From contig JBFMBH010000006.1 of NCBI GenBank assembly GCA_040755095.1, positions 1,290 through 65,289 of the forward strand: a stretch of DNA of 64,000 bases. The letters are read 5' to 3'. Shown piece by piece: positions 18,037-64,000 of this stretch (position 1 is its first letter; each line of letters starts with the position of its first letter). Position numbers and translations under genes: made by a program. The DNA is from Thermodesulfobacteriota bacterium (GTDB lineage: Bacteria > Desulfobacterota > Desulfobulbia > Desulfobulbales > JBFMBH01). The notes under the pieces were generated by a model, which was not told where the DNA came from, searched no databases, and saw nothing but the letters and a program-made list of their open reading frames with translations.

Positions 18037-18087
18037 CGTGGGTCCTTGTCGTAGGCGTCTTGTTCGTCAGCCGGGCGTGATCGTCAT

Positions 18088-19614: not shown

Positions 19615-19636
19615 GGCTTACCCCGGGAGAACGCTG

Positions 19637-23157: not shown

Positions 23158-23175
23158 AACGGTCTCCCTTCCCTC

Positions 23176-23496: not shown

Positions 23497-23497
23497 T

Positions 23498-24022
23498 TCA
23501 GGTCCCCCTTCCGGAACGGGCCAGCACCAGGGAGCCGACGATGGCCACCAGAAGCACCACCGAGATGAGCTCGAACACCATGCTGTAGCTGGTCAAGAGC
23601 TCCTGGCCAATGCGCTCAATGGAGCCGTCCCCCACCCGCTCCGCCGCCGCTGGCCAGTTGGTCAGGGCACCCAGCTGGGCCAGGCCCGCGAACAGGGCCA
23701 GGCCGGTCAGGCCCCCCAGGAGTGCGGTCACTGGCCCGGAGCCCGCCACATCCCTGGGCTGGGGGTCGGCAAGCATCACCGCGAAGACGATGGTGACACA
23801 GACCGCGCCGACATAGATCAGGATCTGCATGATCGACACGAAGGGGCTCTCCAGATAATAGTAGAGGCCGGCCACCCCCAGGAACGAGAGGGCCAGGCCG
23901 GCCACCGCGCGCACCAGGCGAGCTGAGCCGACGGCAATGATGGCGCCCACAACCGTCACCACCAGCACCCCCAAAAAGACGAGACCGGACATCCCGTCGG
24001 CCGAGAGCAGGACAGGGTTCAT
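23498..24022 (-). CDS. nuoJ: NADH-quinone oxidoreductase subunit J
   Basis: Start ATG 24022 ([10 protein letters not shown]..) overlaps the nuoI stop as ATGA. 'FVSIMQILIYVGAVCVTIVFAVML'. The track ORF start at 24259 lies inside nuoI. Confidence 0.85.
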   Translation of the reverse strand: MNPVLLSADGMSGLVFLGVLVVTVVGAIIAVGSARLVRAVAGLALSFLGVAGLYYYLESPFVSIMQILIYVGAVCVTIVFAVMLADPQPRDVAGSGPVTALLGGLTGLALFAGLAQLGALTNWPAAAERVGDGSIERIGQELLTSYSMVFELISVVLLVAIVGSLVLARSGRGT

Positions 24023-24462
24023 GGCTTGCGCTCCTTGAGCCTTTTCACCAGGTCGAAGACGAAGTCCTCCCGGCGTTGGCTGGCCAGGTTGTAGTCCATG
24101 GAGAAGCGGATCGCGCCGGGCTTGCAGTTCTCGACACACTGGCCGCACAGACTGCACTTGGTGAAGTCGAGGGTGTACTCGGTGAGCACCTTCTTCTTGG
24201 TGGCCTCGTCCTTGGCGCCCGAGACGCTGATGCAGTCCGAGGGACAGCCCTTCTGGCACAGGCCACAGACGATGCAGATGGACTCGCCGGTCTCCGGATC
24301 CGGGGTCAGCTCAATATGGCCCCGGAAGCGGGGCTTCATCTTGAGGCTCTGGTGGGGGTACTGGACCGTGACCACCGGCCCCACCATGTGCTTGAAGGTG
24401 ATGCCCAGCCCGACCGCCAGGCTGGTGGCGCCGTCGATGATCTCTTTGAAGTAGCCACTCAT
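24019..24462 (-). CDS. nuoI: NADH-quinone oxidoreductase subunit I (2x[4Fe-4S])
   Basis: '[12 protein letters not shown]' and '[12 protein letters not shown]'. ATG 24462 overlaps the nuoH stop (ATGA). Confidence 0.9.
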
Positions 24463-25454
24463 GACCCGAGCACCTTGAGCGTTGCAGCGGTGAGGAGGAG
24501 ATTCACCAGGGAGTAAGGGATCAGGATCTTCCACGACAGATTCAGGAGGCCATAAAAGGTGGTACGCGGGTACGTCCAGCGGACCCACATCACAACGTAG
24601 ATCAGGAAGTAAACCTTCAGCAGGAACCAGTGGATGCCGGGGAAGAGCCCGAAGGGGCACTGCCAGCCGCCCAGGAAGAGGATGACCGCCAGGGCGCAGC
24701 CGACAAAGACGTTGGCATACTCACCCAGGAAGAAGACACCGAAGCCCATGCCCGAGTATTCGGTGAAGGCGCCGGCCACCAGCTCGCTTTCCGCCTCCAC
24801 CATGTCGAAGGGGGCGCGGTTGGTCTCCGCCATGGAGCAGATGAAGAAGAGCAGAAAGGAGATCGGGGCAAGCGGCGTTTCCCAGATCCGGAACACATAC
24901 CACTGCAGGATGTTGGGCTGCTGGCGGACAATCTCGTTGAGGTTCATGGTACCGGTCACCATCACCATGGTGATGATGATGATGAGCATGGGGATCTCAT
25001 AGGCCAGGTTCTGCGAAACGGCGCGGGCCGCCGAGATGACAGCATATTTGTTGGCCGAGCCCCAGCCGGCCAGGAGCAGGCCCAGAACAGTCACCGAGGC
25101 GAAGGCCAGGATGAGGATGATACCGACGTTGATATCCCGGACCACCAGGCTCTCGGAGAAGGGCAGCACCACATAGGACATCACCGCCGGCGTCATGACC
25201 ATAAGCGGTGCCACCCGAAACAGGGTGGCGTCGGCATCCCGCGGTATGATGAGCTGCTTGCTCATGAGCTTGATGCCGTCGGCAAAGGACTGCAGGATGC
25301 CAAAGGGTCCCACCTCCTTGGGCCCGATCCGGACCTGGATGTGGCCGGCGACCTTGCGCTCCAGCCACACCAGAAAGGAGGCGTTCAGGGCGACAAAGGC
25401 CAGCACCACCACCAGGCCGCCGATCAACCAGGACAGTTCGAATTGCGAGCTCAT
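24459..25454 (-). CDS. nuoH: NADH-quinone oxidoreductase subunit H
   Basis: '[33 protein letters not shown]' and '[33 protein letters not shown]'. Start is ATG 25454 (MSSQFELSW). Confidence 0.9.
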
Positions 25455-25498
25455 GGGCAACGATACCCTCCGACCCCAGTGGGCAGGGCCTTGTAGGA

Positions 25499-26626
25499 CT
25501 AGCGATCGATCTCCGGGATGACCAGGTCGAGGCTGCCCATGATGGCGATGGCATCGGCAAGCAGGCAGCCCTGGCTGACCTCGGCAAAGAGACTCAGGTT
25601 GGAGAAGGACGGCGACCTGAGCTTCAGGCGGTATGGGGTGTTGGTGCCGTCGCTCACCAGATGGATGCCGAACTCGCCCCGCGCCGCCTCCACCGCACAA
25701 TAGATGTCGCCCTTGGGCGGCTTCAGGATCTTCGGCACCTTCTCGGCCTTGTAGGGTCCGTCCGGCAGCTTGTCCAGGGCCTGCTCGATGATGCGGCAGC
25801 TCTCCAGCATCTCGTCCATGCGCACCATGTAGCGGGCCATGGAGTCGCCTTCCGAGTAGATGGGCACGTTGAACTCGAAATCCTTGTACACCGAGTAGGG
25901 CTCGTTCTTCCGGACATCGTAGGAAACCCCGGAGCCCCGCAGCACCGGGCCGGTGGCCCCGTACTTGCGGCAGGTCTCAGGGCTGATGTAGCCAATGTCC
26001 TTGAGCCGCTTGATCAGAATGATGTTGGTGGTCACCAGCTTGTGGTACATGGGCACCCGGGCGCGCATCCGCTGCACGAACTCCCGGGTGCCGGCGATGA
26101 ATTCCTCGTCGATGTCGTTGTACACGCCGCCGAAGCGGAAGTAGCAGTAGGTGAGCCGGGCACCGGTCACCATCTCCAGAAGATCCAGAAGCCGCTCCCT
26201 GTCGTCAAAGGCGTAGAGGAGCGGGGTGAAGCCGCCCAGGTCCAGGACATAGGCCCCGAACCACAGCAGATGGCTGGAGATGCGGTTGAGCTCGGTGGTG
26301 ATCACCCGGATGTACTCGGCCCGGGGTGGCACCTCGATACCGGCGGCCCGCTCCACGGCGCAGACATGGCCGTGGTTGTAGGACAGGGCCGACAGGTAGT
26401 CCATCCGTGCCGGATTGGGCAGAAACTGGGCGTAGGTGCGGTTTTCACCCATCTTCTCGTGCATGCGATGGATATAGCCCAGGACCGGCTCGGCCTCGGC
26501 GATGTACTCGCCGTCCATCACCAGCTTGACCCGGAGCACGCCGTGGGTGCTCGGGTGCTGGGGACCGAGATTGAGGACAAAGGTCTCCTTCTGGAAGCTC
26601 GGAGTGACGTGGGCGAGGGGGCTCAT
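25499..26626 (-). CDS. nuoD: NADH-quinone oxidoreductase subunit D (49-kDa/NiFe-large-subunit-like)
   Basis: '[25 protein letters not shown]' and C-terminal '[13 protein letters not shown]'. ATGA overlap with the nuoC stop. Confidence 0.9.
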
Positions 26627-27072
26627 CCGTTCAGTCCTTTGAAATCCTTCCGGAGGGGATGGAAATCGGCATCCTCGGGCAGGAGCAGCGGCACCAGGTA
26701 GGGATGGCCCGCAAAGCGGATGCCGAAAAAGTCATGGGTCTCCCGCTCGTGCCAGTTGGCACCGGGGTAGATGCCGGAGATGCTGGGCACCTCCGGGTTG
26801 TCCCGGGGAGCCCGGGTGCGGATCACCACCCGGCAGGTCTCCTGGACATGGGCGAAGTGGTAGACCACCTCCATCTCCCCGGCGGCCAGCCAGTCCACCC
26901 CGCAGACATCCTCCAGGAAGAAGCCCAGCCCGTCCACCGCCTTGACCGCGGCGAGCACCTGGTCCACCGCCACCGCCGCGTCCACGTGGTAGCCCTTGGC
27001 CTTGTAATCGGTCTCCTGGACCCCTTCCGGGGTGATGGCCGCCAGGGCGGCCCGGGCCTTGTCGCGCAGCAT
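26623..27072 (-). CDS. nuoC: NADH-quinone oxidoreductase subunit C
   Basis: 'ISGIYPGANWHERETHDFFGIRFAGHP'. ATG 27072 lies 1 nt after the nuoB stop. The track start at 27309 overlaps nuoB. Confidence 0.85.
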   Translation of the reverse strand: MLRDKARAALAAITPEGVQETDYKAKGYHVDAAVAVDQVLAAVKAVDGLGFFLEDVCGVDWLAAGEMEVVYHFAHVQETCRVVIRTRAPRDNPEVPSISGIYPGANWHERETHDFFGIRFAGHPYLVPLLLPEDADFHPLRKDFKGLNG

Positions 27073-27073
27073 G

Positions 27074-27571
27074 TCAGACGGCCTCCACCCGGGGCCACCG
27101 GCGATGGCCCGTAATCTTCTCTTCCAGGGCCATGATGCCCTCCAGGAGGGCCTCTGGCCGCGGCGGGCAGCCAGGGATGTAGATATCCACCGGCAGGAAC
27201 TTGTCCGCCCCCTCAACGATGCCGTACTGGCCTTCGAAGACGAAGGGGCCACCCGAGATGGCGCAGTTGCCCATGGCGATGACCCACTTGGGCTCGGGCA
27301 TCTGGTCATAGAGGGTCTGGACGGCCGGTGCCATCTTGCGGCTGATGGTGCCGGCCACGATCATCACGTCCGCCTGCCGGGCGGAGGGGCGAAAAACCCC
27401 GGCCCCGAAACGGTCGATGTCGAAACGGCAGGCACCGGTGGCCATCATCTCGATGGCGCAGCAGGCAAGGCCAAAGGTCATAGGCCACAGGGAATTGGCC
27501 CGGCCGATGGCCAGGACCTTGTCCACAGCCGCGAACTGGATTACTGGCGAGTGTAGGTTTTGCGCTCCCAC
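27074..27571 (-). CDS. nuoB: NADH-quinone oxidoreductase subunit B
   Basis: '[17 protein letters not shown]', 'GNCAISGG' and '[11 protein letters not shown]' (N2 cluster ligands). GTG 27571 is preceded by AAGGGAG with a 7-nt spacer and overlaps the nuoA 3' end by 31 nt. Confidence 0.85.
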
Positions 27572-27933
27572 GTGAAAACTCCCTTCTTCCAGGCATAGAC
27601 GATGGCCAGGGACAGGATGCCGACGAAGATGACGATCTCCACCAGGGACCGGATCCCGGCGACCTCCTTGTAGGTCAGGGCCACCGGAAAGAGGTAAAGG
27701 ACGTCGACATCGAAGGCGATGAACATCAGGGCATACAGGTAGTAGACGATGCCGAAGCGGATCCAGGCGGGCCCGATGGGGTCCATGCCGCATTCGTAGA
27801 TCTGCAGCGTCCTGGGGCGGATGCCTCGGGGGGCCAGGAGGTTGGCGATGATGAAGGGGCCGATCGCAAAGACCAGCCCGCCCAGGAAGAAGGCCACCAC
27901 GAAGAGGTGGTCATAAAGAGCGGTTTGCTGCAC
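27541..27933 (-). CDS. nuoA: NADH-quinone oxidoreductase subunit A
   Basis: 'QIYECGMDP' and '[13 protein letters not shown]'. The track start GTG 27942 overlaps the SD AAGGAG (27947..27942) by 1 nt. The next in-frame GTG at 27933 has an 8-nt spacer, so I prefer it. Confidence 0.85.
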
Positions 27934-27983
27934 GGCGCGCACTCCTTGGAAAAGGGTTGTTCATGGGCGGCAGCGTTCCGGGT

Positions 27984-31375: not shown

Positions 31376-31562
31376 GGACCGCGCCCGACTCCAGCACATG
31401 GTCGAAGCCATGGAGGACGCCGTTCGCTTTGTTCAGGGACGGCGGACGATCACCGAAGAGATTCCCTGCCTGCTCCCCGCGCTGCGTGCCGCACTGGCCC
31501 TGGACCAACCAGCCGGGGAAACGGATCCTCCTGGCAATCCTGGGGAGAGGCTCTTGGGGTGA
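31365..31562 (+). pseudogene. HEPN (DUF86) toxin remnant with an apparent internal deletion
   Basis: The start overlaps the MNT stop by 11 nt, the typical module geometry. The N-terminus 'MRPEDRARLQHMVEAMEDAVRFVQGR' is DUF86-like. It joins directly to a C-terminal-like 'EEIPCLLPALRAAL'. No Rx4-6H motif is present, and it has 65 codons versus the roughly 110-130 expected. Confidence 0.55.
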
Positions 31563-31635
31563 GGGCAGCGCGCCGCCCAGCGGTACCAGGAGAAGGAGGC
31601 AAGCCAGGGGGACGCCGTGGCGGGTTGCGAAGCCG

Positions 31636-31911
31636 TCATGTCTGACGATGATAGATCTCCCGGCGATGGCCGACGGCCAGGGCCAGAACCACGAGCCGCT
31701 CTTCCTGAATTTCGCAGATGATCCGGAAATCTCCTACCCGGTAGCGCCACAAGCCGGCCAAATCTCCACGCAACGGCTCACCGAAGTGCCTGGGGTTCTT
31801 GCACCCTTCAATGCGATCATCCAGCCAGTCCAGAAGGCGCTGTTGGACCGGATGGTCGAGCTTGCGCAGTTGTTTTTCAGCAAAACTGCTGATCTCAACC
31901 GTCCAGGCCAA
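31636..31911 (-). CDS. RelE/ParE-family type II toxin
   Basis: 'MAWTVEISSFAEKQLRKLD..PLRGDLAGLWRYRVGDFRIICEIQEERLVVLALAVGHRREIY' (RelE/StbE pattern). Confidence 0.85.
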   Translation of the reverse strand: MAWTVEISSFAEKQLRKLDHPVQQRLLDWLDDRIEGCKNPRHFGEPLRGDLAGLWRYRVGDFRIICEIQEERLVVLALAVGHRREIYHRQT

Positions 31912-32107
31912 GCTCTTTCCTCAAATCCCGCAAGCTTCTGCTGCCGCTGCTTTCGGCGATTGCCCGCCTGGCCAGCTCAAGGTCCTCGTTGTCCTCAAGA
32001 TAACGGACAATCGCTTCACGAACCACGGCACTGCGGTTGCGGCCCTTGGCTCTGGCCAACAGGTCGAGCTCTTGTTCAAGCTCCTTTTCCAATCGGATTG
32101 CCAACAT
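31895..32107 (-). CDS. Ribbon-helix-helix antitoxin (RelB/CopG-like)
   Basis: 'MLAIRLEKELEQELDLLARAKGRNRSAVVREAIVRYL'. ATG 32107 is preceded by AGGAGG with a 7-nt spacer. It overlaps the toxin start by 17 nt. Confidence 0.8.
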   Translation of the reverse strand: MLAIRLEKELEQELDLLARAKGRNRSAVVREAIVRYLEDNEDLELARRAIAESSGSRSLRDLRKELGLDG

Positions 32108-32556
32108 GGAAGATCCTCCTGGCAAATATGTATTACAGGGTATAACCCGGAGGCTGAGTTTGTCAATCGGACGAGGGGCCTGCCTCCCAATGCCGTTGAC
32201 TGAAGGTGAGGCCTCTTGGGCGCCCTTTCTCCCCCATTTAGCAGGGGAAGACGGGCGAGCGCGCCACTTGCCCCGCTCGATTGCCCAACCCTGCCAGAAC
32301 CACCGGCGGGTGTCGAGGTGGTGCGGCCGGCCCGGGCATTGCTGCGGAACGGCTCCCTGATCCGTCCCTCGCGCCGGAGCACGTCGGCCGTATGGGGAGA
32401 TGCCGGACAGGCCCGTGCCCGGCAGGGCGTTGGAGCTGTGGCAGGTGACGCCGCGGCTCGGCCGAACGGACGAGCGGAAAGCCGAGGGGAAGAAGCCCCC
32501 CCCGATGCGGGGCCGGCCGGGGGGAGGCGGGAAGAACGGGCAGGGAGAAGCCGGCC

Positions 32557-34017: not shown

Positions 34018-34217
34018 GGCTGGCGGGAAGCGCGGACGGCGGAGGCCACCGTCTCGTAGACGCTGCGGAAGGTCTCGTCGAAGTTGGGGGGGGACAGGCG
34101 GCCCACCTCGATGAACTTGACAACGATCTCCTTGGCCACCTTGAGGATGGCCTCCTCGGAGACCGGCTTGGCTGCCGGCTCCTGGCCGGGGACCACGATC
34201 TTGGCAGGCTGGGTCAT
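34014..34217 (-). CDS. Small conserved-looking hypothetical protein (67 aa)
   Basis: 'MTQPAKIVVPGQEPAAKPVSEEAILKVAKEIVVKFIEVGRLSPPNFDETFRSVYETVASAV'. GC3 is very high (almost every codon ends in G/C). The stop is coupled to the mpl start. The start may instead be GTG 34220. Confidence 0.65.
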   Translation of the reverse strand: MTQPAKIVVPGQEPAAKPVSEEAILKVAKEIVVKFIEVGRLSPPNFDETFRSVYETVASAVRASRQP

Positions 34218-34358
34218 CACGAGCACAGCTCCGGGGCCAAAGCCCGCAGGGGTGACCAGAGGGAAGCCTCTGCTGGGGGAAGAAGGCCGTGGCTGGACTA
34301 CCAGCAGAGGCTTCTGCCGACAGAAAAAACCGGTGACGGCCCTCCCTGAGGCAGGGCC

Positions 34359-34387
34359 AATATACCCGGTTGCCAGGGCCGGCACAA
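34359..34387 (-). promoter_or_regulatory. Candidate promoter for the small-gene/mpl unit
   Basis: Minus strand TTGTGC (34387..34382), 17-nt spacer, TATATT (34364..34359). Confidence 0.35.
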
Positions 34388-34773
34388 GCCGAGGAGCGGC
34401 CCGGCGTTGGGCCCGTCAGGGGGGCGGGCAATTCCGCCGCACCGCCTGGTCGTACAGCCATGGCAGCTTGAGCAGGGCGAAGGAAGCTGAGGTTGGGATG
34501 GCGGATGCGCTCCACCAGAATGAACACCGCAATCTCGGCCGGCAGCGGTTCCCCAGGCCGGCCCGCCATGGCCTGGCGTTGGCGAGCAGCCAGGTGGGCG
34601 GGATGGCTCCTCTACCCCCGTGGTGCCAGGGCGCATCGCTGTTATGCCACAGACGGTCCGGACTGCCGGGACCAGGCGCCGGCGAACCTGCCTTGTGGAT
34701 TCCCCGGTCCTGGACTACCATGACACCAGGGAGCTGCGCCCCCGCTGTCCCTGATCCCAGGAGCCCTTGGCCC

Positions 34774-37260
34774 ATGGCCCTGCCTTTGCGCGTGCTCATC
34801 ATCGATCAGTCGCCGGAGGAGGCGGCCTTGCTGGTGGAAAGGCTCACCGCCGGCGGCTTCGACGTGGATTGGCGGCTCGCCGCGACCGCCACCGCCGTGA
34901 CCGAGGCCCTGGAGGAGGAGCGGCCCTGGGAGCTCATGCTGGTGGACTGCGCCTTTGCCGGCTCCCCCTGGCGCTATGCCTTGGCCCTGCTCCGGAAGCG
35001 GCGGCTGGATCTGCCAGCCATCGCGGTGGCCCGGCGGGCGGACGAGGGCACGGTGACTGCCAGCATGCGGGCCGGGGCCCGGGACTTCGTGGCCAAGGAC
35101 CGGCTCGGCCGGCTGCTGCCGGCCGTGCGCCGGGAGATCCAGGAGGCCACGGGCCGGCGGGCCAAGGGCCTGGCCGAAGAGGAGCTCCGGCGCAGCCACC
35201 AGGCCCAGATAGTGTTGAACCGCCTCCTGCATCTGGCCCTGGAGGACGCCCCCCTGGAGAAGTGCCTGGCGCAGCTGATCGCGGCCCTGACCGCCTTCCC
35301 CTGGCTGGCCCTGGAGCCCCGGGGTGCCATCTTCCTCAAGGATGAGGCGTCCCCGACCCTGGTCATGAAGGCGCAGTGCGGCCTGGCGCCGCCCCTCGTG
35401 TCCCGGTGCGATCGGCTGCCCTTCGATCGGTGCCTGTGCGGCCGGGCCGCGGCCAGCCGCGAGGTGATCTTCACCGACGACCTCGACCAGCAGCACGAGA
35501 TCGCCTACCCGGGCATCCACCCCCACGGCCATTACTGCGTGCCGATTCTGGCCCGGGACCGGTCGCTCCTCGGCGTCTTCACCGTGTACACCGAGGCCGG
35601 CGCCCGCCGGGACCGCCGGGTGGAAGAGACCCTCCTGGCGGCGGCCAGCGTCGTGGCCGAGGTGATCAGCCGCAAGCGCACCGAGGCGGCCCTGGCCGCC
35701 AGCGAGGAGCGCTACCGGATCCTGGTGGAGAACATCGACCTGGGCATCACCCTGATCGATCCCCAGCACCGGATCGTCATGACCAATGCCGCCCAGGGCC
35801 GGCTGTTCGGCCGGGATGCCCGCTCGTTCGTGGGCCAGCCCTGCCATGAGGCCTTCGAGAGCCGGCCGACGGTCTGCGACGGCTGCCCCGGCACAGCGGC
35901 CATGACCTCCGGCGAGCCGCAGGAGGCGGAGCGGGAAGGGGTGCGGCCGGATGGCAGCCGTGTTGCCGTGCGGATCCGGGCCTTTCCGGTCATCGACCCA
36001 GGGGGTCGGCCCACCGGCTTCATCGAGGTGGTGGAGGATCTCAGCCGGGCCCGGCAGCTGGAGACCGAGCAGGCGGCCCTGGAGGCCCGGCTGCGCCAGG
36101 CCCAGAAGATGGAGGCCATCGGCACCCTGGCCGGCGGCATCGCCCACGACTTCAACAACATCCTGTCGGCCATTCTCGGCTACAGCGACCTGGCCCGCTC
36201 GGCCCTGCCCCAGGGCAGCCCGATCCGGGACGATGTGGAGCAGGTGGTGCAAGCCGGCCAGCGGGCCAAGGATCTCGTGCAGCAGATCCTCGCCTTCAGC
36301 CGCCAGGCCGAGGTGGAGCACAAGCCCTTGCAGATCCATCTGGTGGTCAAGGAGGTCTTGAAGCTGCTCCGCGCCATCATCCCCAGCACCATCACCCTGC
36401 GCCAGAACATCGAGGCCCGGGCCGGCACGGTGCTGGCCGATCCCGTCCAGATCCACCAGGTGCTCATGAACCTGTGCACCAACGCTTACCAGGCCATGCG
36501 GGAGAGAGGCGGCATCCTGGCCGTGGAGCTGAGTCGCGTCGATCTCCAAGCCCGCGCGACCCGCGGCGACCCCGAGCTGGCCCCCCGGCCGTACGTGCGC
36601 CTGCTCGTGACCGATTCCGGCCCGGGCATCGACGCCGCCATCATCGATCGGATCTTCGAGCCCTATTTCACCACCAAGGCCCAGGGCGAGGGCACCGGCC
36701 TGGGGCTGGCGGTCTCCCACGGCATCGTCACCAACCTGGGTGGCACGGTCACCGTGGCCAATGCACCGGAAGGGGGGGCCATCTTCACTGTTCTCCTGCC
36801 CCGGGTCGAGGAGGAGATCGGGGACGAGGGCCGGGACCATTTGGGATGCCCGGGCGGCCGGGAGCGGGTGCTGCTGGTGGATGACGAGCCGGCGGTCGCC
36901 GGCCTGGAAGGCAGGATCCTGGAACAGCTGGGCTATCAGGTGACGGTGCACACCAGAAGCGTTGCGGCCTTGGCCGCCTTCGAGGCCGCCCCGCAGCGTT
37001 TCGACTGCCTGCTCACCGATCAGACGATGCCGGGCTGCACCGGTCTCGACTTGGCCCGGCAGGTGCTGGCCCGCCGGCCAGGCCTGCCGGTGGTCCTGTG
37101 CACCGGCTTCAGCGAGGGCCTGGACCCGGGGCTGGTACGGCAGGCGGGCATCCGGACGGTGCTCCGCAAGCCGCTCCTGGCGCGGGAGCTGGGAGAGGCG
37201 CTCCGCCGGGTCCTGGATGAAGACAAGGAGCGCTACTCATCCTCCGGCGGGGTGCCGTGA
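34774..37260 (+). CDS. Hybrid sensor histidine kinase: REC-GAF-PAS-HisKA-HATPase-REC (828 aa)
   Basis: N-terminal REC 'RVLIIDQSPEEAALL..ELMLVDCAF'. GAF-like 'HYCVPILARDRSLLGVFTVY'. PAS 'EERYRILVENIDLGITLID'. H-box 'IAHDFNNILSAILGY'. N/G boxes 'QVLMNLCTNAYQA', 'TDSGPGID' and 'GTGLGLAVSHG'. C-terminal REC 'RVLLVDDEP..DCLLTDQTMPG'. ATG 34774. The track start at 34084 is an over-extension. Confidence 0.9.
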   Translation: MALPLRVLIIDQSPEEAALLVERLTAGGFDVDWRLAATATAVTEALEEERPWELMLVDCAFAGSPWRYALALLRKRRLDLPAIAVARRADEGTVTASMRAGARDFVAKDRLGRLLPAVRREIQEATGRRAKGLAEEELRRSHQAQIVLNRLLHLALEDAPLEKCLAQLIAALTAFPWLALEPRGAIFLKDEASPTLVMKAQCGLAPPLVSRCDRLPFDRCLCGRAAASREVIFTDDLDQQHEIAYPGIHPHGHYCVPILARDRSLLGVFTVYTEAGARRDRRVEETLLAAASVVAEVISRKRTEAALAASEERYRILVENIDLGITLIDPQHRIVMTNAAQGRLFGRDARSFVGQPCHEAFESRPTVCDGCPGTAAMTSGEPQEAEREGVRPDGSRVAVRIRAFPVIDPGGRPTGFIEVVEDLSRARQLETEQAALEARLRQAQKMEAIGTLAGGIAHDFNNILSAILGYSDLARSALPQGSPIRDDVEQVVQAGQRAKDLVQQILAFSRQAEVEHKPLQIHLVVKEVLKLLRAIIPSTITLRQNIEARAGTVLADPVQIHQVLMNLCTNAYQAMRERGGILAVELSRVDLQARATRGDPELAPRPYVRLLVTDSGPGIDAAIIDRIFEPYFTTKAQGEGTGLGLAVSHGIVTNLGGTVTVANAPEGGAIFTVLLPRVEEEIGDEGRDHLGCPGGRERVLLVDDEPAVAGLEGRILEQLGYQVTVHTRSVAALAAFEAAPQRFDCLLTDQTMPGCTGLDLARQVLARRPGLPVVLCTGFSEGLDPGLVRQAGIRTVLRKPLLARELGEALRRVLDEDKERYSSSGGVP

Positions 37261-43926: not shown

Positions 43927-45930
43927 TCAGCCCTGCGGCGCCGGCCGCCGTGCCGGTGCCGCCGCCAACAGCTGCGGATCCGGGCCGGCCAGCACCCGGT
44001 CGTCGGCCGTCGCCGGCCCCCCGCCACCCATGAACGTCAGCCCGCTGTCCCGGCGGTGCTCCGGAAAGGTGTAGCCGTCCTCCAGGAACAGGGAGAGACA
44101 GGCGTCGACCGCCTGGACGTCGTAGCGGCTGCCGCGGCCGGCGCTGATCTCCGCCAGGGCCCGATCCAGGCCCAGGGCTGGCCGGTACGGGCGATGGGAG
44201 GAGAGCGCCTCCACCACATCGGCAATGGCCAGGATCCGGGCCGCCGGCTGGATCCCCTCGCCGGTCAGCCCGTGGGGATAGCCGGAGCCGTCCAGCCGCT
44301 CGTGGTGCTGGCGCACCGTCTCGGCCAGGGGCCAGGGGAACTCGATGCCCCTGAGGATGTTGAAGCCGATCTCCGGGTGGGGCTTGAGGATGGCCAGCTC
44401 AGCGGCGGACAACCGGCCCGGATGGCAGAGGATATCGGACGGCACCCGGATCTTGCCGATGTCGTGCAGCACCCCGGCCATGTGGACCCCCTCCACCCGA
44501 TGGGAATCGAAGCCCAGCTTCAGGGCCAGGGCGGCGGCCAGGTTGGCTACCCGCTGCTGGTGGCCCGCTGTGTAAGGATCGCGCATCTCGACGATCAGGG
44601 CCATGGCCTCCACGGTGCCGCTCACCGTCTTGGCCAGCTCCTCGGTCCGCTCGGCCACCCGCAGCTCCAGCTCGTCATGGGCCTTCCGGAGCGCCTCCTC
44701 GGCCAGCTTCCGCTCGGTGATGTCGTGGACCATGAGCACGTAGCCGGTGATCTTCCCCTGCCGGTCGATGATCGCTGAGGCCCGGGCACTGAGATGCTGC
44801 TTGCCGCCGGCCCGCTGCCGCTCGATGAGGAAGGCAGAGCGCTCGCCATTGTGGAGAATGCCCAGCACCCCATGGATCCGGGACATGACCGGTCCCTGGC
44901 CGCCGTGCAGGGACGAGAGGTCCCGGCCCAGAACCGTGGCGGACCGGAGGCCGAAGATCTGCTCGGCGCCGGGGTTGAAATAGGTGACCCTCTGGTCGAG
45001 GCCCACGGCGATGATGCCGTAGTCGATGGCGGACTGGAGGATGTTATCCAGGTAGGTGGTCTTTTCGGCCAGATCCAGGGAGGTGGAGTGGATGACGAAG
45101 TCCTTCTCCCGGATGACGAAATCCTTTTCCTTGATGATCTCGTTCAAGGCCTGGATGTATTTTCCCTCCAGCCCCTTGACCATGTCGGACTGGGTGGCCA
45201 GCCCCTCGATGGTGCCATCGCTGTCCGCCACCACCAGGCGCCGCAGCCTCTTTCGCTTCATGATCTCGATGGCGAGGGGCAACGGGGTATCGCCGGCCAC
45301 CGACTGCAGAGAGCGGCTCATGACCTCTCCCACCCGGACCTGACTGAGGTCCGGGTAGTCCAGGAGCAGCCGGGAGACATCCCGCTCGCTGATGATGCCC
45401 ACCGGCTGCCGGCCTTCCGTGATGACGATGCAGCTCATGGACCGCTCGGCCATGCGCACCAGGGCCTCCCGGACATCAGTCTCGGGCGGCACGGTCAGGA
45501 CGACCCTGGTCATCACCTGGGCGATGCGCTTCATCTCCACAAAGGACTCGAAGGAGAGATGCTCGACGATGTCGGTGAGGGTGACCACCCCCACCAGCCG
45601 CTCGTCCTCGTCCACCACCGCCAGGTGGCGCAGGTGGTGCGCCGAGAAAAGGCTGTAGGCCTCGAAGATGTCCACCTGGCGGCCGGCGGTGATCACCGGG
45701 GTGCTCATGATCGCGCGCACCTCGCAGCTGTCCACCGCTGGCCCCTGGCCGGGGATGAGCCGGACCAGGTTGCGCTCGGTGACGATCCCGGCCGGCCGGC
45801 CACCTTCGGTCACCAGGATGCAGCTCACATGATGCGCCCGCATGAGCCGCAACGCCTCCGACACCTTGGTCGCCGGTGCCACACTGATGACCTCGGTGGT
45901 CAGGATATCGGCCAGCTTGGATGTGTCCAT
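43927..45930 (-). CDS. CBS(x4)-PAS-HD-GYP signalling protein, a probable c-di-GMP phosphodiesterase
   Basis: Four CBS repeats ('VSCILVTEGGRPAGIVTERNL', 'LAVVDEDERLVGVVTLTDI', 'SCIVITEGRQPVGIISERDV', 'LVVADSDGTIEGLATQSDM'). PAS 'GIIAVGLDQRVTYFNPGAEQIFG'. HD-GYP 'GHQQRV..GVLHDIGKIRVP..HHERLDGSGYPHGL'. Confidence 0.85.
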   Translation of the reverse strand: MDTSKLADILTTEVISVAPATKVSEALRLMRAHHVSCILVTEGGRPAGIVTERNLVRLIPGQGPAVDSCEVRAIMSTPVITAGRQVDIFEAYSLFSAHHLRHLAVVDEDERLVGVVTLTDIVEHLSFESFVEMKRIAQVMTRVVLTVPPETDVREALVRMAERSMSCIVITEGRQPVGIISERDVSRLLLDYPDLSQVRVGEVMSRSLQSVAGDTPLPLAIEIMKRKRLRRLVVADSDGTIEGLATQSDMVKGLEGKYIQALNEIIKEKDFVIREKDFVIHSTSLDLAEKTTYLDNILQSAIDYGIIAVGLDQRVTYFNPGAEQIFGLRSATVLGRDLSSLHGGQGPVMSRIHGVLGILHNGERSAFLIERQRAGGKQHLSARASAIIDRQGKITGYVLMVHDITERKLAEEALRKAHDELELRVAERTEELAKTVSGTVEAMALIVEMRDPYTAGHQQRVANLAAALALKLGFDSHRVEGVHMAGVLHDIGKIRVPSDILCHPGRLSAAELAILKPHPEIGFNILRGIEFPWPLAETVRQHHERLDGSGYPHGLTGEGIQPAARILAIADVVEALSSHRPYRPALGLDRALAEISAGRGSRYDVQAVDACLSLFLEDGYTFPEHRRDSGLTFMGGGGPATADDRVLAGPDPQLLAAAPARRPAPQG

Positions 45931-58543: not shown

Positions 58544-58737
58544 AGCTCCCTCCTCATGTTTATGGGGAGAGCATCTCTTAACGAGCAAAGGAAGCGACTG
58601 TCAAGCCTGACGATGGCACATTACCGCCTGGATGGTAGACCGTTCCACCGTGGGAAGGTCAAGATGATCTCCATCGCCAGCCATACCAAACCCAGCACTG
58701 ACCACGTTGTTCTTCTCCCAGAGATCTGACTTTGTCA

Positions 58738-58764
58738 TTGACAACCAATCAATGACTCTATTAT
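58738..58764 (+). promoter_or_regulatory. Candidate promoter in the AT-richer spacer upstream of the giant kinase
   Basis: TTGACA (58738..58743), 15-nt spacer, TATTAT (58759..58764). The short spacer keeps confidence low. TGAC/GTCA half-sites are clustered around it. Confidence 0.3.
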
Positions 58765-58835
58765 GAGTTCTGCTCGTGGAGTAGGAACAGTGTCAGTTAT
58801 TGTCTTTCTTACCGCGTAGGGGGCGCGTCAATGCC

Positions 58836-61800
58836 ATGACAGGATGTCCACTCCTTCAGATCATCACCGGTGGCGGCTCCAAGGGCCTCCAGGGGGTGCT
58901 CGCCGATCTTGTCGCGCATGCGGCCGACAAGCTGGGGCCTGCCTCATGCCAGAGCTATCTCCTCGATGGGGCCTCGGGAACCCTCAAGCCTGAGGCCTCT
59001 TGGCCACCCGAAGCCGACATTCCTCCGGCGGAGCCACCTTCCGAAGTGGCGGAGGCATACCGGGCAGAGCGCCTAGTCGCGGGGCGGCAGGGCGTCGCAA
59101 TGCCGCTTCCTGCCGGCAGGAAGGTGATCGGGGCGCTCCACTTCTCCTTCCAGCCACCGGCGACCGCCCGCGGCACAGCGCGCATCCAACCCGAGGCAAG
59201 CACTGCCCAGGTCAAAGCAACGGCGGACTTCCTCGCGTCGCTCTGGGAGCCGCATGTCCGAGAGGCGATGTGGGAAAGGGTCCTGTTCTCGACCTGGGAG
59301 GAGATCCAGCTGGCAGGCGAAGGACCACTGGCCCTCAAGGAGGCGGTGGACCGCTTTGTGGAGGAGTTTCGGCAGGCGTTTGACGACTCCGTGTGGTCGC
59401 CGCCTGACATGCTCTACCTCCAGCTGGTCGACCAGCACCAGCGGGCGATCCGAACCGTGCGCGGCTTCGGGATGCCGCTGAGCTTCGAATTCCTGCCTGC
59501 CCACCCGCTGGCCACCGGGGACGCCCAGGCCAAGCTGGACATCCAGGCCGACGTGGTACACCATCTGCGACCGGAATTCATTGTCGGCAACGACTGCCAG
59601 CGCTTCGACCAGCGGATCTTCTTCCAGTATGGCCATGAGAGGTTCAGCAGGTTCTGGTTCCCCCTCTTCCCCCTGCTCGCTTTGCCACGCGCCAGCGACG
59701 ATGTCGACGCCATCGAGGCTTATCTCCAAAACGCATTGGCCTGGCCGGACGAAAAGCAAGGTAGTGGGTTTGTCAGTCAGGCCGCGAATTGGGTCGCCCG
59801 CCCACCCCCGCCCGCAGATCTGGTGCTCGGCACAGTGGAGATCGGTTACCTCCGGAAGAGTCCAGACCGGCTGCGCCTGGATCCCTGGACACCTGAGCAG
59901 GGAACCCGGGCCATGGCCACGGGACTCTTCTTTGCCAACCGTCTGTTCCGGGCCACCCAAGCAGGCGCCCTGGAGAGAATCGGCAGCGCCCTTGCCCTGG
60001 TGAGGCCCGGGCGGACGCACGCCCTGCAACTCCATGTCACGAACGGCCGCAAGGTTGAGACGCGGGAATACCCTGCCCCTGCTCCCTGGGGGGTGGCCAT
60101 TGCCCGGGCCACGGATGGCCCAGCACCACAGCGGGACCAGCCGCCTCTGCGCCGTTCGTGCACAGTGGTCTTTGAACAGCCCGGACAAGCCGCTGTGGCC
60201 GATGCTGGGGTGACCGCGGACCTCTGCCAGGAAATCGACCAGCGGGTGAGCCGGGCCGCAGACGTGGCCTCCCACCTTTTCCGGGGCTTCTTCTATCCCC
60301 AGGAGTTGGTGGTGCCAGACCGGAACCCCAGTGCCATGGGCCTGCGGGTCAAGGACGAGACGGTGTTGTCGGTCTGCGAGGAGGCCGCCGTGATGGCTGG
60401 TGCGGTCTGCTGCCTGGCCTATTTCTTCGCGCCTGGGGAGGACACCCCGTCCTTGCGACGCCCTCCCACAGTCTGGGGGGAGATGCCCCGGCAGCCGTCC
60501 GACTTCCGGACGAGGGTTGACGCCGAGGCGGAAGAAGTGGCTGCAGGCCGAACCTCCCGTTACGACGTGGCCATCGGCCACGGCACCGGCTCATCCTGCC
60601 TGACCATGCTGCCCCTGGAGCTGTCCGAGGCGACCACCGGGGTGCTGGCTCTCATCCACCAGCCAGGAAACAGCTCTCCCATCCCTGTCCTCCGCGCTGA
60701 TCTCGAAAGAAGGATTCCCCGGTGGGTCTACCGCCTGCACATCCTCCACCTCGTCTCGCACAGTCGGTTTCTTGCCCTTACCACCAGCCTCCGGAAGGAG
60801 ATCGCGGAGGCCTACAGGAACTTCACCAATGGCCATCGGAACGTGCGGCTTTTCATCGAAGACGTCGTCCGCAAAAGCGTCCAGCTCATCAAGCCGGTCG
60901 CCGCCTGGATCACTGACCCCAGGACCACTCCCCAGGCCGGCCCCAGCCGCATCTATCGACACTGGTGCATTCCCAACGGCACCGCTGACCCTCCCCGGAT
61001 CTTCAACCACCTCTTTGCCCCAGCCACCCCCTCGGGTCCGTGTCAGGAGGCCTGTACGACCGGACGGCCGGTCATCTGCAGCGGCGGCGACAAGAAGACC
61101 AGGATCCGGAGCTTCATTACGGCTCTGGAGCAGGAGGCCAAGCAGCAACATGAGGGCGGGGAACGTGATATCGCCAACCGCCTCCGGCGGTTTGCCAGTG
61201 CCGTCGACCACGCCGAAGGGGAGTCCACCATCGTCACCATCCCGCTGGCCAGGCGGCCAGAAGAGAAGGGCAGCCTCAAACCCACCTTCACCTGGCTTCT
61301 CCAGGGTGACCTCCATTCCGACGAGGACCAACAGCTCCTGCTGCTCGAGCTCGGGGAGGTGCTAGCCGAGACCCTCCATCAGGCCCAGGGCATTGAAAGG
61401 CAGGAATACGAAGAGCGTTCCCAGGAACAATTGGATGCCCTGGGCCACAACCTAGCCATGCAGGGAGGCTGTGACGACGCCTTTGGCGCCTGGCTCCAAT
61501 GGCTCGCTGGCAAGAAGTGGCCTTGCCTGGGGCGGGACGTAGTCATCTGGCTGTTCTCCGCCAACGCCAAGACCCTGGTGGCCCGTTCCTGCAGGGGCCA
61601 GGCTCTTGAAGCACTACATCAGGCAGGGAATCTGGAGGTGATCGATCTGACGGATCATCCGCTGGCCCACGACAAGATTGACGCGGCCCGGATAGGGAGC
61701 TGGCCACTCGGGTCATCCATGCTGTGGTCAATGCCACTCCAGTACCACAACAGAACCCCGGGCCGGCGCCTGCTCGCCGCATACGCCAAGAAGACCGACG

Positions 61801-63377
61801 GGAACCACCTGGTTTCCTTTCCCATGGTGGATGCCACGGGCCAGGTCTTCGGGGTGGTGGATTGTCTTCGTTCCGAACTGTTCGAGGTCGAAGAGGAGAA
61901 GGTCCTGGGGCACATGCTGCGCCGGGTGACGGGAATCTTCCTTGCCAAGATTACCGAGCTCCGCCTGCGACGGAGCAGAGAAACCATCAACGAGCTTTTC
62001 GCAGACACGAAAAAATTTCTCCTCGATTTCCAGGCCGAGCAGGCGTGCAAGAGCCTGGTGGAAGGCATTCGTAAGTTCTTCCAGTGCGAACATTGCGATC
62101 TCTTTTTCGCGGATCAGGCAGAGGCCATGGCCCTGCTGGCCACCACCAGGGAGCAGGGCCCAGTCACTGATTCGGATCGCTTCCGCTTCCGAATCCTCGC
62201 TTATGGGGAGGACGACGAGATCCTGGCCCGTTGTCTTCGCAATGGCGCGGCAGACATCCAACACCGAAGGGAGGGCACAAAGCCCTCCCGTGCCACCCAG
62301 CTGTCAGAGGACCTTGGCGTCCTCCTGGGCGGAGCGCTTTCTGCCGAGCGGCTGGTCATGCCGCTCCTGGACACCGCGCGTGGAGGGAAGAGGTGTGTAG
62401 GTCTCCTGCACCTGGAGAATCCGCAGCAGCGGGAACAGCAGGTGCTCGACGGCCAGCAGCAAAAGACCAGAGTCTTGAAGCGAAGCTGTCGCTTCACAGC
62501 CGAGGACCTGCGGCTGGCCGAGGAGATGGCCCCTGCCCTGCAACGGATCCTCCTTACCATCGCGCTGTCAGAGAAACAGGTCTGGCTCATCCGGGACGTC
62601 ATGCACTCCCTGGGGCACCCCCTGCAAACCCTCCGCGATGAGGTGCAGGGCCTGCTCCTGGCACTGACCAGAGGCGGGGAGGTGCCGTATCTGGAACTCC
62701 AATCCATGAATGATCGGGTGGAATGGGCCTTCCAGTTCGTCCACGATGCCCGGGACCGCTGGACCTTCTTCACTACCCCCCGATCCCCCGATCACCGATG
62801 GACCTATGAGAGCGTGAACCTCAAGGACTTTGTCCAGAGATGCTGCGACTCCATGGCCTCAGTGGCCAAGCGTGGCCGAAACCGCATCGCCTATGCCGAC
62901 CTGAAGGCGATCCGGCCTATCCAGGCAGTCCCCGAATGGCTCCGGATTGCCGTCATCAACCTCCTGGAGAATGCCTGCAAGTACTCCTGGCAGGACGGCG
63001 AGGTGGCTGTTGCCTTGGATGAATCGGATGATGGCACCATCCGCGTGCAGATCAGGAACTGGGGGATCGGCATCCCGGCGGAAGACCGGGAAAGGATCTT
63101 CCAGCCCTACTACCGGTCCCGGGTTCCGGACGCCAGGGGAACCCGGCCCGGGACTGGCATCGGCCTTGCCATTGTCAGGGAGGCCGTCGAAAACATCCAC
63201 CGAGGCAAGATTCTGGTGGAAAGTGTCCCTGTCAGGGAAGAACCAGCCGGCCGCACCTCGGAAACGGGGCCGGCCCCAGGCCGGGTCGAGCATTGCACCA
63301 CCTTCACCATCGCGCTTGACCGGGCAACACTGGCGAACCTGGCGGAACAGAACCCCACCGATGAAGGAGAAGCCTGA
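58836..63377 (+). CDS. Giant soluble sensor histidine kinase (1513 aa). About 1250 aa of the N-terminus is unassigned (GAF-like repeats?), followed by HisKA and HATPase_c.
   Basis: I saw no hydrophobic TM stretch. H-box 'RDVMHSLGHPLQTLRDEV' (His codon 62604..62606). N-box 'INLLENACKYS'. G1 'IRNWGIGIPAEDRERIFQPYYRS'. G2 'GTGIGLAIV'. Recurrent GAF-like strands: 'RKVIGALHFSF', 'TGVLALIHQPG', 'QVFGVVDCLRSE' and 'KRCVGLLHLENP'. Start is ATG 58836. The track start is TTG 58800. Confidence 0.8.
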   Translation: MTGCPLLQIITGGGSKGLQGVLADLVAHAADKLGPASCQSYLLDGASGTLKPEASWPPEADIPPAEPPSEVAEAYRAERLVAGRQGVAMPLPAGRKVIGALHFSFQPPATARGTARIQPEASTAQVKATADFLASLWEPHVREAMWERVLFSTWEEIQLAGEGPLALKEAVDRFVEEFRQAFDDSVWSPPDMLYLQLVDQHQRAIRTVRGFGMPLSFEFLPAHPLATGDAQAKLDIQADVVHHLRPEFIVGNDCQRFDQRIFFQYGHERFSRFWFPLFPLLALPRASDDVDAIEAYLQNALAWPDEKQGSGFVSQAANWVARPPPPADLVLGTVEIGYLRKSPDRLRLDPWTPEQGTRAMATGLFFANRLFRATQAGALERIGSALALVRPGRTHALQLHVTNGRKVETREYPAPAPWGVAIARATDGPAPQRDQPPLRRSCTVVFEQPGQAAVADAGVTADLCQEIDQRVSRAADVASHLFRGFFYPQELVVPDRNPSAMGLRVKDETVLSVCEEAAVMAGAVCCLAYFFAPGEDTPSLRRPPTVWGEMPRQPSDFRTRVDAEAEEVAAGRTSRYDVAIGHGTGSSCLTMLPLELSEATTGVLALIHQPGNSSPIPVLRADLERRIPRWVYRLHILHLVSHSRFLALTTSLRKEIAEAYRNFTNGHRNVRLFIEDVVRKSVQLIKPVAAWITDPRTTPQAGPSRIYRHWCIPNGTADPPRIFNHLFAPATPSGPCQEACTTGRPVICSGGDKKTRIRSFITALEQEAKQQHEGGERDIANRLRRFASAVDHAEGESTIVTIPLARRPEEKGSLKPTFTWLLQGDLHSDEDQQLLLLELGEVLAETLHQAQGIERQEYEERSQEQLDALGHNLAMQGGCDDAFGAWLQWLAGKKWPCLGRDVVIWLFSANAKTLVARSCRGQALEALHQAGNLEVIDLTDHPLAHDKIDAARIGSWPLGSSMLWSMPLQYHNRTPGRRLLAAYAKKTDGNHLVSFPMVDATGQVFGVVDCLRSELFEVEEEKVLGHMLRRVTGIFLAKITELRLRRSRETINELFADTKKFLLDFQAEQACKSLVEGIRKFFQCEHCDLFFADQAEAMALLATTREQGPVTDSDRFRFRILAYGEDDEILARCLRNGAADIQHRREGTKPSRATQLSEDLGVLLGGALSAERLVMPLLDTARGGKRCVGLLHLENPQQREQQVLDGQQQKTRVLKRSCRFTAEDLRLAEEMAPALQRILLTIALSEKQVWLIRDVMHSLGHPLQTLRDEVQGLLLALTRGGEVPYLELQSMNDRVEWAFQFVHDARDRWTFFTTPRSPDHRWTYESVNLKDFVQRCCDSMASVAKRGRNRIAYADLKAIRPIQAVPEWLRIAVINLLENACKYSWQDGEVAVALDESDDGTIRVQIRNWGIGIPAEDRERIFQPYYRSRVPDARGTRPGTGIGLAIVREAVENIHRGKILVESVPVREEPAGRTSETGPAPGRVEHCTTFTIALDRATLANLAEQNPTDEGEA

Positions 63378-63883
63378 TGGCCGCGCCACCGTCGAAACGA
63401 ATCCTGATCGTTGAGGATGAGCCTGATCTGCGGGACAAGCTCAAGGGCTTGCTGACCAAGTACCAGGCCTTCCAGATCCTGGAAGCCGCGGATGCTAGGC
63501 AGGCGCAGGACATCGTTCAAGAGCCTGGCCAGCGGCTGGCGGCAGTTATCCTGGACATCATGCTCTCCTATGGCACCCCGTCGCCCAATCTCGGGCAGGA
63601 CAATGATCCGGACATGGTGGACACCGGGGTGCGGTTGCTGCAGTGGCTGCGGGAGACCGTCCAGGACCGATCCGTCTGGGTCGCCGTCACCACCTCTCGG
63701 GTCAACCCCCGGCTTGTCTCGAGAGTTCGATCGCTCCTGGGCCGCCGGGGCAAGATCTATCCCAAGCCATACAACCGTCTGCTCCTCGAGCACGACCTGG
63801 CCCTGGTGCTCGGGGAGGGAAGCCAGGTTCCGGCTGTCCTGATCCCGGTCGACTACTCGCCTCCCAGCCATGAGTCGGAGTAG
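63377..63883 (+). CDS. Stand-alone receiver-domain protein with an atypical insertion
   Basis: 'KRILIVEDEPDLRDKL', 'AAVILDIML' (phospho-Asp context), 'VAVTTS' and 'KPY'. An insertion of about 25 aa, 'SYGTPSPNLGQDNDPDMVDTGVRLLQWL', follows beta3. The ATG overlaps the kinase TGA by 1 nt (TGATG). Confidence 0.75.
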   Translation: MAAPPSKRILIVEDEPDLRDKLKGLLTKYQAFQILEAADARQAQDIVQEPGQRLAAVILDIMLSYGTPSPNLGQDNDPDMVDTGVRLLQWLRETVQDRSVWVAVTTSRVNPRLVSRVRSLLGRRGKIYPKPYNRLLLEHDLALVLGEGSQVPAVLIPVDYSPPSHESE

Positions 63884-63888
63884 GAATC

Positions 63889-64000
63889 ATGGTCGCCCAC
63901 GACCCCCTCCACAGATCCGGACGAGCGGATTTCCCGCATCCGGCTCTTGCCTCAGGTGATGACGCCAAGGCGCCGCAGAGGGTAGGGATGGCAGATACGC
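63889..64000 (+). CDS. Hypothetical protein, 5' fragment only (runs off the right edge)
   Basis: Not in the track because it has no stop in the window. ATG 63889 is preceded by GGAG with an 8-nt spacer and lies 5 nt after the receiver stop. Translation is MVAHDPLHRSGRADFPHPALASGDDAKAPQRVGMADT... GC3 is only moderate (about 24/37). Confidence 0.35.
   Translation, partial: MVAHDPLHRSGRADFPHPALASGDDAKAPQRVGMADT

Follow-up and report, generated by a model that had tools for sequence, protein, structure and literature searches.

The right-hand end of a 64,000-nucleotide stretch of DNA from a Thermodesulfobacteriota bacterium (contig JBFMBH010000006.1 of assembly GCA_040755095.1; the whole stretch is called the window here) carries genes one and two of an accessory, mobile gene cassette that belongs to a real, if rare, family and encodes a sensor histidine kinase, a protein consisting of a receiver alone and, in the relatives, a third protein that we call X. 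The kinase open reading frame (ORF) at 58836-63377 (+ strand) encodes 1513 aa from its ATG, or 1525 aa from an alternative TTG at 58800, and is followed at 63377-63883 (+) by the receiver ORF (168 aa as read); kinase stop and receiver start share one base within TGATG at 63375-63379. A first-pass annotation of this DNA, made by a model from the letters alone, had described both ORFs and their overlap, and our ORFs agree with it. It had also proposed a self-contained signalling module of at least three genes, which holds for the relatives, although the ORF that it took for the third gene does not belong to the cassette and two genes are visible in the window. That the family is a three-gene cassette, and that this cassette is mobile, we regard as highly probable. 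The fuller reading takes the segment for what can be seen of a three-gene phosphorelay cassette that is accessory, horizontally mobile and enzymatic in its output; this reading we hold in even balance.

The three-gene arrangement was found wherever a relative had enough sequence downstream of the receiver to be informative. In all 11 such loci (L002, L003, L005, L015, L016, L017, L029, L030, L031, L032 and L033/34) X follows the kinase and the receiver, usually with its start overlapping the receiver stop by 1 or 4 nt, and is 900-1000 aa long. The kinases are collinear over ~1400-1500 aa at 25-44% identity and form ~40 clusters at 50% identity, and their named records are mostly metagenome-assembled genomes (MAGs) of Desulfobacterota. 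Generic GAF kinases crowded the output of a second homologue search, run with 33 aligned family sequences, from which only the same four members were recovered. We compared the kinase sensor, the receiver and X with PADLOC, PHROGs and NCBIfam, and none of the three matched a named system.

What kind of protein is X? Its homologues (n = 14) are all annotated as 'hypothetical' and belong to no Pfam family, but they share the invariant motifs YRDHLLHV, LLHDIGY, DHGxLSALR, HAIAHHN and LLRLCDELQ, which together give an H..HD..H..H..D pattern; the residues invariant in the 14 sequences are H474, H530-D531, H612, H656 and D678 in the numbering of homologue P0028. An AlphaFold model of X (predicted local distance difference test, pLDDT, 78; predicted template modelling score, pTM, 0.74) begins with a GAF-like antiparallel-sheet domain and continues through a long stretch of helices into an HD core, with an alpha/beta domain at the C-terminus. 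Its best Foldseek matches, weak but mutually consistent, were phosphodiesterase 6 (PDE6, a GAF-GAF-PDE protein; E 2.4e-3), PDE2, the HD-GYP structure 4mcw (E 1.2e-2, probability 0.99) and isolated GAF domains. The Pfam HD model scored 14.1 bits on the HD motif in three of the 14 members, below its cut-off of 22; a profile search of Protein Data Bank (PDB) sequences found nothing below E 0.18, and none of the homologues had a Response_reg match. In its N-terminal GAF-like domain, helical linker and putative HD-superfamily metal site X resembles PDE2, PDE5 and PDE6 and the HD-GYP phosphodiesterases, from which it differs in having no GYP motif and an additional C-terminal alpha/beta domain; it has no sequence similarity to any solved chain. 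Taking motifs and predicted fold together, X is best described as a GAF-HD phosphohydrolase-like protein. The output of the module had been called unknown by the first-pass annotation; since in the relatives it is an HD-motif protein, that is no longer wholly so.

The greater part of the kinase is its sensor region of ~1250 aa, which we divided into six segments by family alignment and predicted secondary structure: D0, an N-terminal GAF (residues 1-135; 58836-59240, +), DA, with a GAF-like pattern (residues 140-400; 59253-60035, +), and the divergent GAF-type segments DB, DC, DD and DE (residues 455-650, 655-860, 870-1045 and 1046-1245; together 60198-62570, +). No GAF match in the window kinase itself lies above a Pfam cut-off; the nearest are GAF_3 in D0 (22.8 bits against a cut-off of 27, residues 19-103) and GAF_2 in DD (27.2 bits against 28.6, residues 966-1024). 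Pooled over family members, however, Pfam GAF matches cover five of the six segments, often above threshold. GAF_2 scores 63.7 and 74.3 bits on D0 of P0003 and P0004, respectively, and 36.8 bits on that of L017; P0003 and P0004 also have weak GAF_3 matches in DB; GAF_2 scores 33 bits on DC of L015; and DE of L001 is matched by both GAF_2 (35.7 bits) and GAF (30.7 bits). An AlphaFold2 model of kinase residues 120-1319, built from a 4-sequence alignment, was poor (mean pLDDT 35), and lends weak support in that the top 50 Foldseek matches to it were all GAF or PAS-GAF proteins. Comparison by hhalign of the six sensor segments, the dimerization and histidine phosphotransfer (DHp) domain and the catalytic ATP-binding (CA) domain with one another revealed no internal repeat (all probabilities <5%), and homology among the segments is not shown directly by it.

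Conservation in the family is highest in DA, with the motifs RGFGMPLSF, DIQADVV, IVGND-RFDQRIF-QY-HE, R-WFPLFP and GTVEIGY, and no Pfam or NCBIfam model describes it: it had no Pfam match in the window protein or its relatives, and a profile search of PDB sequences found nothing below E 0.18. Against 1.84 billion representative proteins, however, a DA profile retrieved 422 at E<=1e-3, of which 42 had E<=1e-30. These 42 are the collinear ~1500-aa kinase family; in the remainder the domain lies N-terminal to ordinary Pfam GAFs in other kinases, is fused to an AAA_15/AAA_21 ATPase (P0073) or makes up proteins of 240-370 aa alone (DA-bearing proteins are listed as P0073-P0098). The pattern common to DA-like domains is two beta strands and then G.G, DIQADI, G.D.RFD, H(E/D), R.F.P and GT.EAGY. 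Because five segments have Pfam GAF matches and DA, with its GAF-like pattern, stands beside GAFs elsewhere, the sensor is predicted to be an array of six GAF-type domains in tandem, DA being from a subfamily for which Pfam and NCBIfam have no model. The suggestion that this was a sensor of a new kind consequently falls, as the region resolves into GAF-type domains, though none of these has a characterised close homologue.

We found no Pfam match to PAS, HAMP or CHASE in the kinase at E<=1, in keeping with the reading by eye of the first-pass annotation, and no HAMP match in six of its relatives. Nor does the kinase have a convincing transmembrane segment: its best 19-residue Kyte-Doolittle mean is 1.82, at residue 510, and this most hydrophobic 19-mer falls within a conserved helix that has two Glu among its residues. 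We take the protein to be most likely soluble, as had been proposed. A public record identical to it, P0001, is named 'MAG: HAMP domain-containing sensor histidine kinase [Thermodesulfobacteriota bacterium]' and is 1369 aa long, starting 145 codons into the ORF (at codon 146, so that window positions 58836-59270 are left out) and thereby cutting off the N-terminal GAF. As Pfam gives no HAMP match, and there is no transmembrane segment, we consider this name to be wrong.

The catalytic core (DHp and HATPase_c) lies at 62553-63374 (+), with the H-box HSLGHPL at 62604-62618. HATPase_c (PF02518; residues 1366-1471) is the sole Pfam match above threshold in the kinase, at 73.3 bits against a cut-off of 26.4. 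The claim of a clear HisKA/HATPase core was therefore right for the ATPase; the HisKA half was overstated, as the H-box is visible and there is no Pfam HisKA match in the window protein (among the relatives, L015 gives E 0.081 only). The putative phospho-acceptor, H1257 (62604-62606), is invariant across 33 family representatives, and so are N1375, N1379, G1410, G1412, G1439, G1441 and G1443; the N box (N1375, N1379) and the G2 box (G1439, G1441, G1443) are thus invariant throughout. Two features are unusual. The family H-box, H-S-L-G-(Q/H)-P-L, has no acidic residue after the invariant His, and the G1 box reads N-[WFY]-G-[VI]-G-I-P in 32 of the 33 representatives, with Asn (N1408 in the window protein, 63057-63059) in place of the Asp of DxGxG. 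In GHKL ATPases the Asp of the G1 box contacts the adenine amino group. All the generic kinases among the same matches have DxGxG, so the family departs from the canonical G1 box. Generic multi-GAF cytoplasmic kinases, which were the more distant matches of our searches, have tandem GAFs, a DHp His and HATPase_c, of which the family shares the last and is predicted to share the other two. The family differs from them in that its GAFs are divergent enough to leave the window protein with no match above a Pfam cut-off, DA has no model, the H-box is H-S-L-G-Q/H-P-L and the G1 residue is Asn; moreover, its ~1500-aa architecture is fixed and is always linked to a receiver and X in informative loci.

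The receiver matches Response_reg (PF00072) marginally, at 30.3 bits against a cut-off of 30.2 and over residues 9-64 alone, because an insertion of ~16 aa follows D60. This insertion, which comes after beta-3, had been put at ~25 aa; we measured it from D60 to G84, where a canonical receiver runs from D to G+8, and its conserved residues are Y65, G66, L72, D77, P78 and G84. In an alignment of nine family receivers E13, D14, D60 (63554-63556), T106 and K130-P131 are invariant, and by sequence the protein is a CheY-like receiver with the residues needed for phosphorylation. A C-terminal tail of ~35 aa follows, and there is no output domain.

In locus L017 the cassette, together with a gene for a PDC-S01 ATPase, is bracketed by leuA sequence, with an intact leuA on one side and, on the other, a copy of its last 204 codons that is 99% identical. 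These last ~615 nt recur 11.9 kb downstream (4206-4824 versus 16091-16709), and a second pair of repeats (13710-13853 versus 16761-16901) suggests two nested insertions at an integration hotspot at the 3' end of leuA; no integrase was seen inside the repeat-flanked insert. In L006, directly after leuA and thus at the site seen in L017, stands a cassette copy that has decayed to a frameshifted, internally deleted kinase remnant (1982-3412), in which the N-terminal GAF and the DA region alone are left; L020 has the same partial match (85-1085). Elsewhere the kinase gene is frameshifted (L005, 1512-6195) or split into ORFs of 800, 178 and 183 aa (L030, 5945-9453), through either decay or assembly error. 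The leuA duplication and the remnant, together with the composition data given below, support the horizontal acquisition that had been suspected from the window alone.

Genes of defence or candidate-defence type adjoin the cassette in five separate lineages. Locus L033/34 has HEC-01A (E 1e-184), HEC-01B (E 2e-87), an NsnA-like DUF262 gene, a methyltransferase, a SIR2-like gene and a RelA/SpoT-like PDC-S33; HEC-01A (E 5e-152) lies immediately upstream of the kinase in L029 (3099-4259). PADLOC models, which also underlie the HEC, NsnA-like, SIR2 and PDC-S33 assignments, identified PDC-S01 beside the cassette in L002 and L017, PDC-S04/SoFic in L017 and PDC-S27 in L005, and the Pfam families MqsR, PhdYeFM, Fic and HEPN_RiboL-PSP were found among the neighbours at various loci. 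The HEC-01A/HEC-01B pair of L033 is complete (16343-19458), and the SIR2-like gene also flanks the cassette there; L033 and L029 are distant members of the family.

A major question arising from this architecture is “How might the cassette work?” GAF domains are small-molecule or protein-binding modules, and we propose that an intracellular cue would bind the GAF array and alter the phosphorylation of H1257, that the phosphoryl group would pass from H1257 to D60 of the receiver, and that the receiver would then switch the HD enzyme X on or off by direct contact, giving an output that would be enzymatic, not transcriptional. The kinase would be expected to phosphorylate its coupled receiver. 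Control of X by the receiver is a proposition for and against which we would lean equally; contact is envisaged because the genes are translationally coupled, because the receiver has no other output and because it has family-specific surface elements. For what purpose would such a relay be used? A role in conflict or against phages appears the most likely, because the relatives are found at hotspots of integration, with defence and toxin-antitoxin genes around them, but we can put a defence role forward only tentatively.

Detocs was the only described defensive two-component system that we found in the literature, and we found no description there of the kinase-receiver-X cassette. Detocs comprises a kinase (DtcA), a stand-alone receiver (DtcB) and a receiver-effector protein (DtcC), uses its phosphorelay for immunity and defends by ATP cleavage, ~80% of systems carrying a PNP nucleosidase (bioRxiv 10.1101/2023.01.24.525353; PMC11728103). 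The resemblance is considerable: both are three-gene operons (with two genes visible in the window) that have a sensor kinase, a receiver-only protein, an output that is enzymatic (in the cassette, by prediction) and a location in defence islands. However, the sensor of DtcA is of TPR type, whereas the kinases described here have six GAF-type segments and no TPR among their Pfam matches; DtcC has an N-terminal receiver fused to its effector, whereas X has a GAF-like N-terminus and no Response_reg match; and X carries an HD motif in place of the PNP nucleosidase of most Detocs systems. Furthermore, the stand-alone receiver is the sole receiver of the cassette and cannot be a mere 'buffer'. As neither a TPR sensor nor an effector-fused receiver is present, the cassette is not a member of Detocs, although perhaps it works like one, and by analogy an anti-phage role with the HD enzyme as effector may be conceived. 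The most specific version of this idea is that the cassette represents an undescribed defensive two-component family, distinct from Detocs, in which an atypical six-GAF kinase would detect infection or a nucleotide alarm signal and the receiver, with its insertion for docking, would activate a GAF-HD hydrolase that depletes a nucleotide or cuts nucleic acid. That version is speculative, and we think it rather doubtful in full.

The main rival to a defensive cassette is that it is a physiological nucleotide-second-messenger circuit. X would then be a GAF-regulated phosphodiesterase like eukaryotic PDE2, PDE5 and PDE6. Its (cyclic) nucleotide, or one related to it, would also be what the GAFs of the kinase detect, with the receiver adjusting X for feedback or adaptation, and the location in islands would reflect no more than accessory cargo. 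The fold of X speaks for this, as it matches PDE6, PDE2 and an HD-GYP phosphodiesterase of cyclic di-GMP, with no nuclease or deoxynucleoside triphosphatase among the top matches, and GAF domains are classic binders of cyclic nucleotides. So does the setting in two places, given that the neighbours in the window are of housekeeping type and those of L030 include no defence-type Pfam family. Yet the fold matches are weak, with E no better than 2e-3 and a template modelling score <0.2 across the full chain, defence or candidate-defence genes directly adjoin the cassette in five independent lineages, and the repeated decay (the L005 frameshift, the L030 split, the L006 remnant and the intron in the window) is more typical of costly conflict genes. 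On balance we consider the circuit possible and somewhat improbable.

What has become of X in the window? The receiver ORF runs into the 3' end of a group II intron on the minus strand (63874-64000), with domains V-VI at 63874-63948 and a body that runs off the window. In a search of 6 kb the RF00029 model was matched from end to end (all 77 positions; E 9e-8) with a score of 49.6 bits, its gathering score being 40. Like the group II introns of other bacteria, the element has domains V-VI matching the full model, a bulged A at the branch point and an AC-terminated 3' end (...CUCCGAC); unlike them, it sits antisense in coding sequence. We see only its last ~127 nt, antisense within the last codons of the receiver gene, at the very junction where in the relatives the receiver stop overlaps the X start. 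The last three codons and the TAG of the receiver are intron sequence, so that the native sequence ends at 63873; by the nine-sequence alignment the protein is complete to within ~6 residues of the usual C-terminus of the family. The ORF with a Shine-Dalgarno sequence that the first-pass annotation took for a third gene (63889-63999, +; MVAHDPLHRSGRADFPHPALASG...) is spurious, being the antisense strand of this intron, and was rejected as the third cassette gene, since tblastn of five third-gene products against the window gave a best E of 0.79. The public contig is 65289 bp long, 1289 nt more than the size of the window, and at most ~1.3 kb thus lies unseen. As ~1.3 kb is too short for a whole intron with its ORF, the assembly probably broke in the intron repeat. 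An antisense intron cannot be spliced from the operon transcript; X, if present, has lost its coupling to the operon, and the cassette may be disabled here.

One could go further and regard the cassette as a disabled remnant, the intron having cut the receiver C-terminus and severed X and the kinase being a pseudokinase or no longer under selection; the locus would then encode two leftover ORFs and nothing that functions. The unspliceable intron in the 3' end of the receiver gene, the visible decay of other loci in the family and the replaced Asp of the G1 box are all compatible with this. But both ORFs are intact (1513 and 168 codons), the family-invariant residues are all kept, the Asn of the G1 box is a trait of the family (32 of 33) and not a local lesion, and the receiver has lost just ~6 C-terminal residues. 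In addition, the G+C content at third codon positions (GC3) of the kinase has risen to 0.77 from the 0.33-0.53 of its relatives, which points to long residence and is not in itself decay. We therefore find a dead cassette at this locus unlikely.

The composition of the two genes deviates from that of the window in a manner that is real but moderate. GC3 is 0.769 in the kinase and 0.799 in the receiver, against a mean of 0.863 (standard deviation, sd, 0.055; median 0.877) for the other 33 candidate genes of the window (z = -1.7 and -1.15, respectively), and the codon-usage log-likelihood gives z = -1.27. A native hybrid kinase of 1058 aa in the same window (34084-37260, +) has a GC3 of 0.881 and serves as an internal control. 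Bulk G+C content (GC) is also lower, 0.640 for the kinase and receiver genes together as against 0.684 upstream, but we dropped bulk GC as a marker of acquisition because a nuo-type region (16.6-27.9 kb), to which the upstream windows of like GC belong, reaches the same low values and nevertheless has a GC3 of 0.79-0.92. In that region (16600-27950), where a match to an NADH dehydrogenase subunit suggests a nuo-type operon of membrane proteins, bulk GC is 0.60-0.65 and GC3 mostly 0.87-0.92, with two genes at 0.79 and 0.81. The first-pass annotation had spoken of a gene visibly lower in GC: a recount of the lines at 61921 and 61981 reproduces its 38/60 and 28/60 exactly, and GC3 is indeed below the norm of the window, while in bulk GC the two genes are matched by 15% of upstream 5-kb windows.

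The kinase is separated from the GH3 gene (minus strand) by an intergenic spacer of 247 bp (58589-58835) with a GC of 0.510, lower than any 247-bp window in the preceding 58.6 kb (minimum 0.538), so that its description as AT-richer was apt. Its + strand contains TTGACA (58738-58743) and, after a 15-nt gap, TATTAT (58759-58764), ~75 nt 5' of the ATG; we read this promoter-like pair by eye, the automatic promoter scan having missed it because of the 15-nt gap, and it could serve as the promoter of the operon. All the relatives examined are in genomes of 36-51% GC and their kinases have a GC3 of 0.33-0.53. The figures fit a cassette that was acquired from a lineage of lower GC and was subsequently ameliorated. 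It is very improbable that kinase and receiver are an ordinary native orphan pair, with a CheY-like or phosphate-sink receiver and a GC3 that is low simply because codon selection is weak when a gene is long and little expressed, since the small z-scores (-1.7 for GC3 and -1.27 only for codon usage), the commonness of stand-alone receivers and the core-type genes upstream, all of which would suit such a pair, are met by the normal GC3 of the native 1058-aa kinase, by the rarity and patchiness of a family that is linked to X in all informative loci and lies in insertion hotspots, and by a change in the character of the genome that coincides exactly with the cassette borders, where the spacer and the intron lie.

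How far, then, can the reading of the segment as part of a mobile phosphorelay cassette with an enzymatic, and possibly defensive, output be pressed? Several observations weigh against it. X is not seen in the window, in the closest relative (L001, 43-44% identity) the sequence likewise stops just past the receiver, and the presence of X in the subclade of the window rests on L031 (36% identity), in which only the first 106 X codons are seen. The HD assignment is made up of motifs, a sub-cut-off Pfam match of 14 bits and Foldseek matches at E 2e-3 to 1e-2. With Asn in the G1 box and no acidic residue after the phospho-His, the core is atypical enough that normal autokinase activity cannot be counted on. 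On the side of mobility, the GC3 shift of the kinase amounts to just 1.7 sd, 15% of upstream 5-kb windows have a bulk GC as low as that of the cassette genes, and the genes upstream in the window are of core or housekeeping type (HrpB, GH3, RlmI-like, CheR, radical SAM and HemE). As for defence, the association is an uncontrolled count in which many of the neighbours (PDC, HEC) are themselves candidate systems, and among the viral contigs searched none carries the kinase or X.

If the reading of a phosphorelay with an enzymatic output is nonetheless correct, the cassette would be a second, independent case of a His-Asp phosphorelay wired straight to an enzyme and not to a transcription factor, and it could be the second kind of defensive two-component system after Detocs. 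The family also offers three objects for biochemistry, namely the GAF-like DA domain with its 422 representatives, a kinase family with Asn in the G1 box and a family of 900-1000-aa HD proteins that has no Pfam model. For annotation there are lessons in a 'HAMP' name that is wrong, a start that truncates a GAF and an apparent third gene that is the antisense strand of an intron.

Elsewhere in the window we noted two native signalling proteins with normal GC3, a protein of four CBS domains, PAS and HD_5 (43927-45930, -) and the hybrid kinase already mentioned, of GAF-PAS-HisKA-HATPase-receiver architecture (34084-37260, +). The most deviant codon usage in the window belongs to a 238-aa ORF at 31429-32145 (+; GC3 0.63, z = -3.8), which has no Pfam family and could be another foreign gene or no gene at all.

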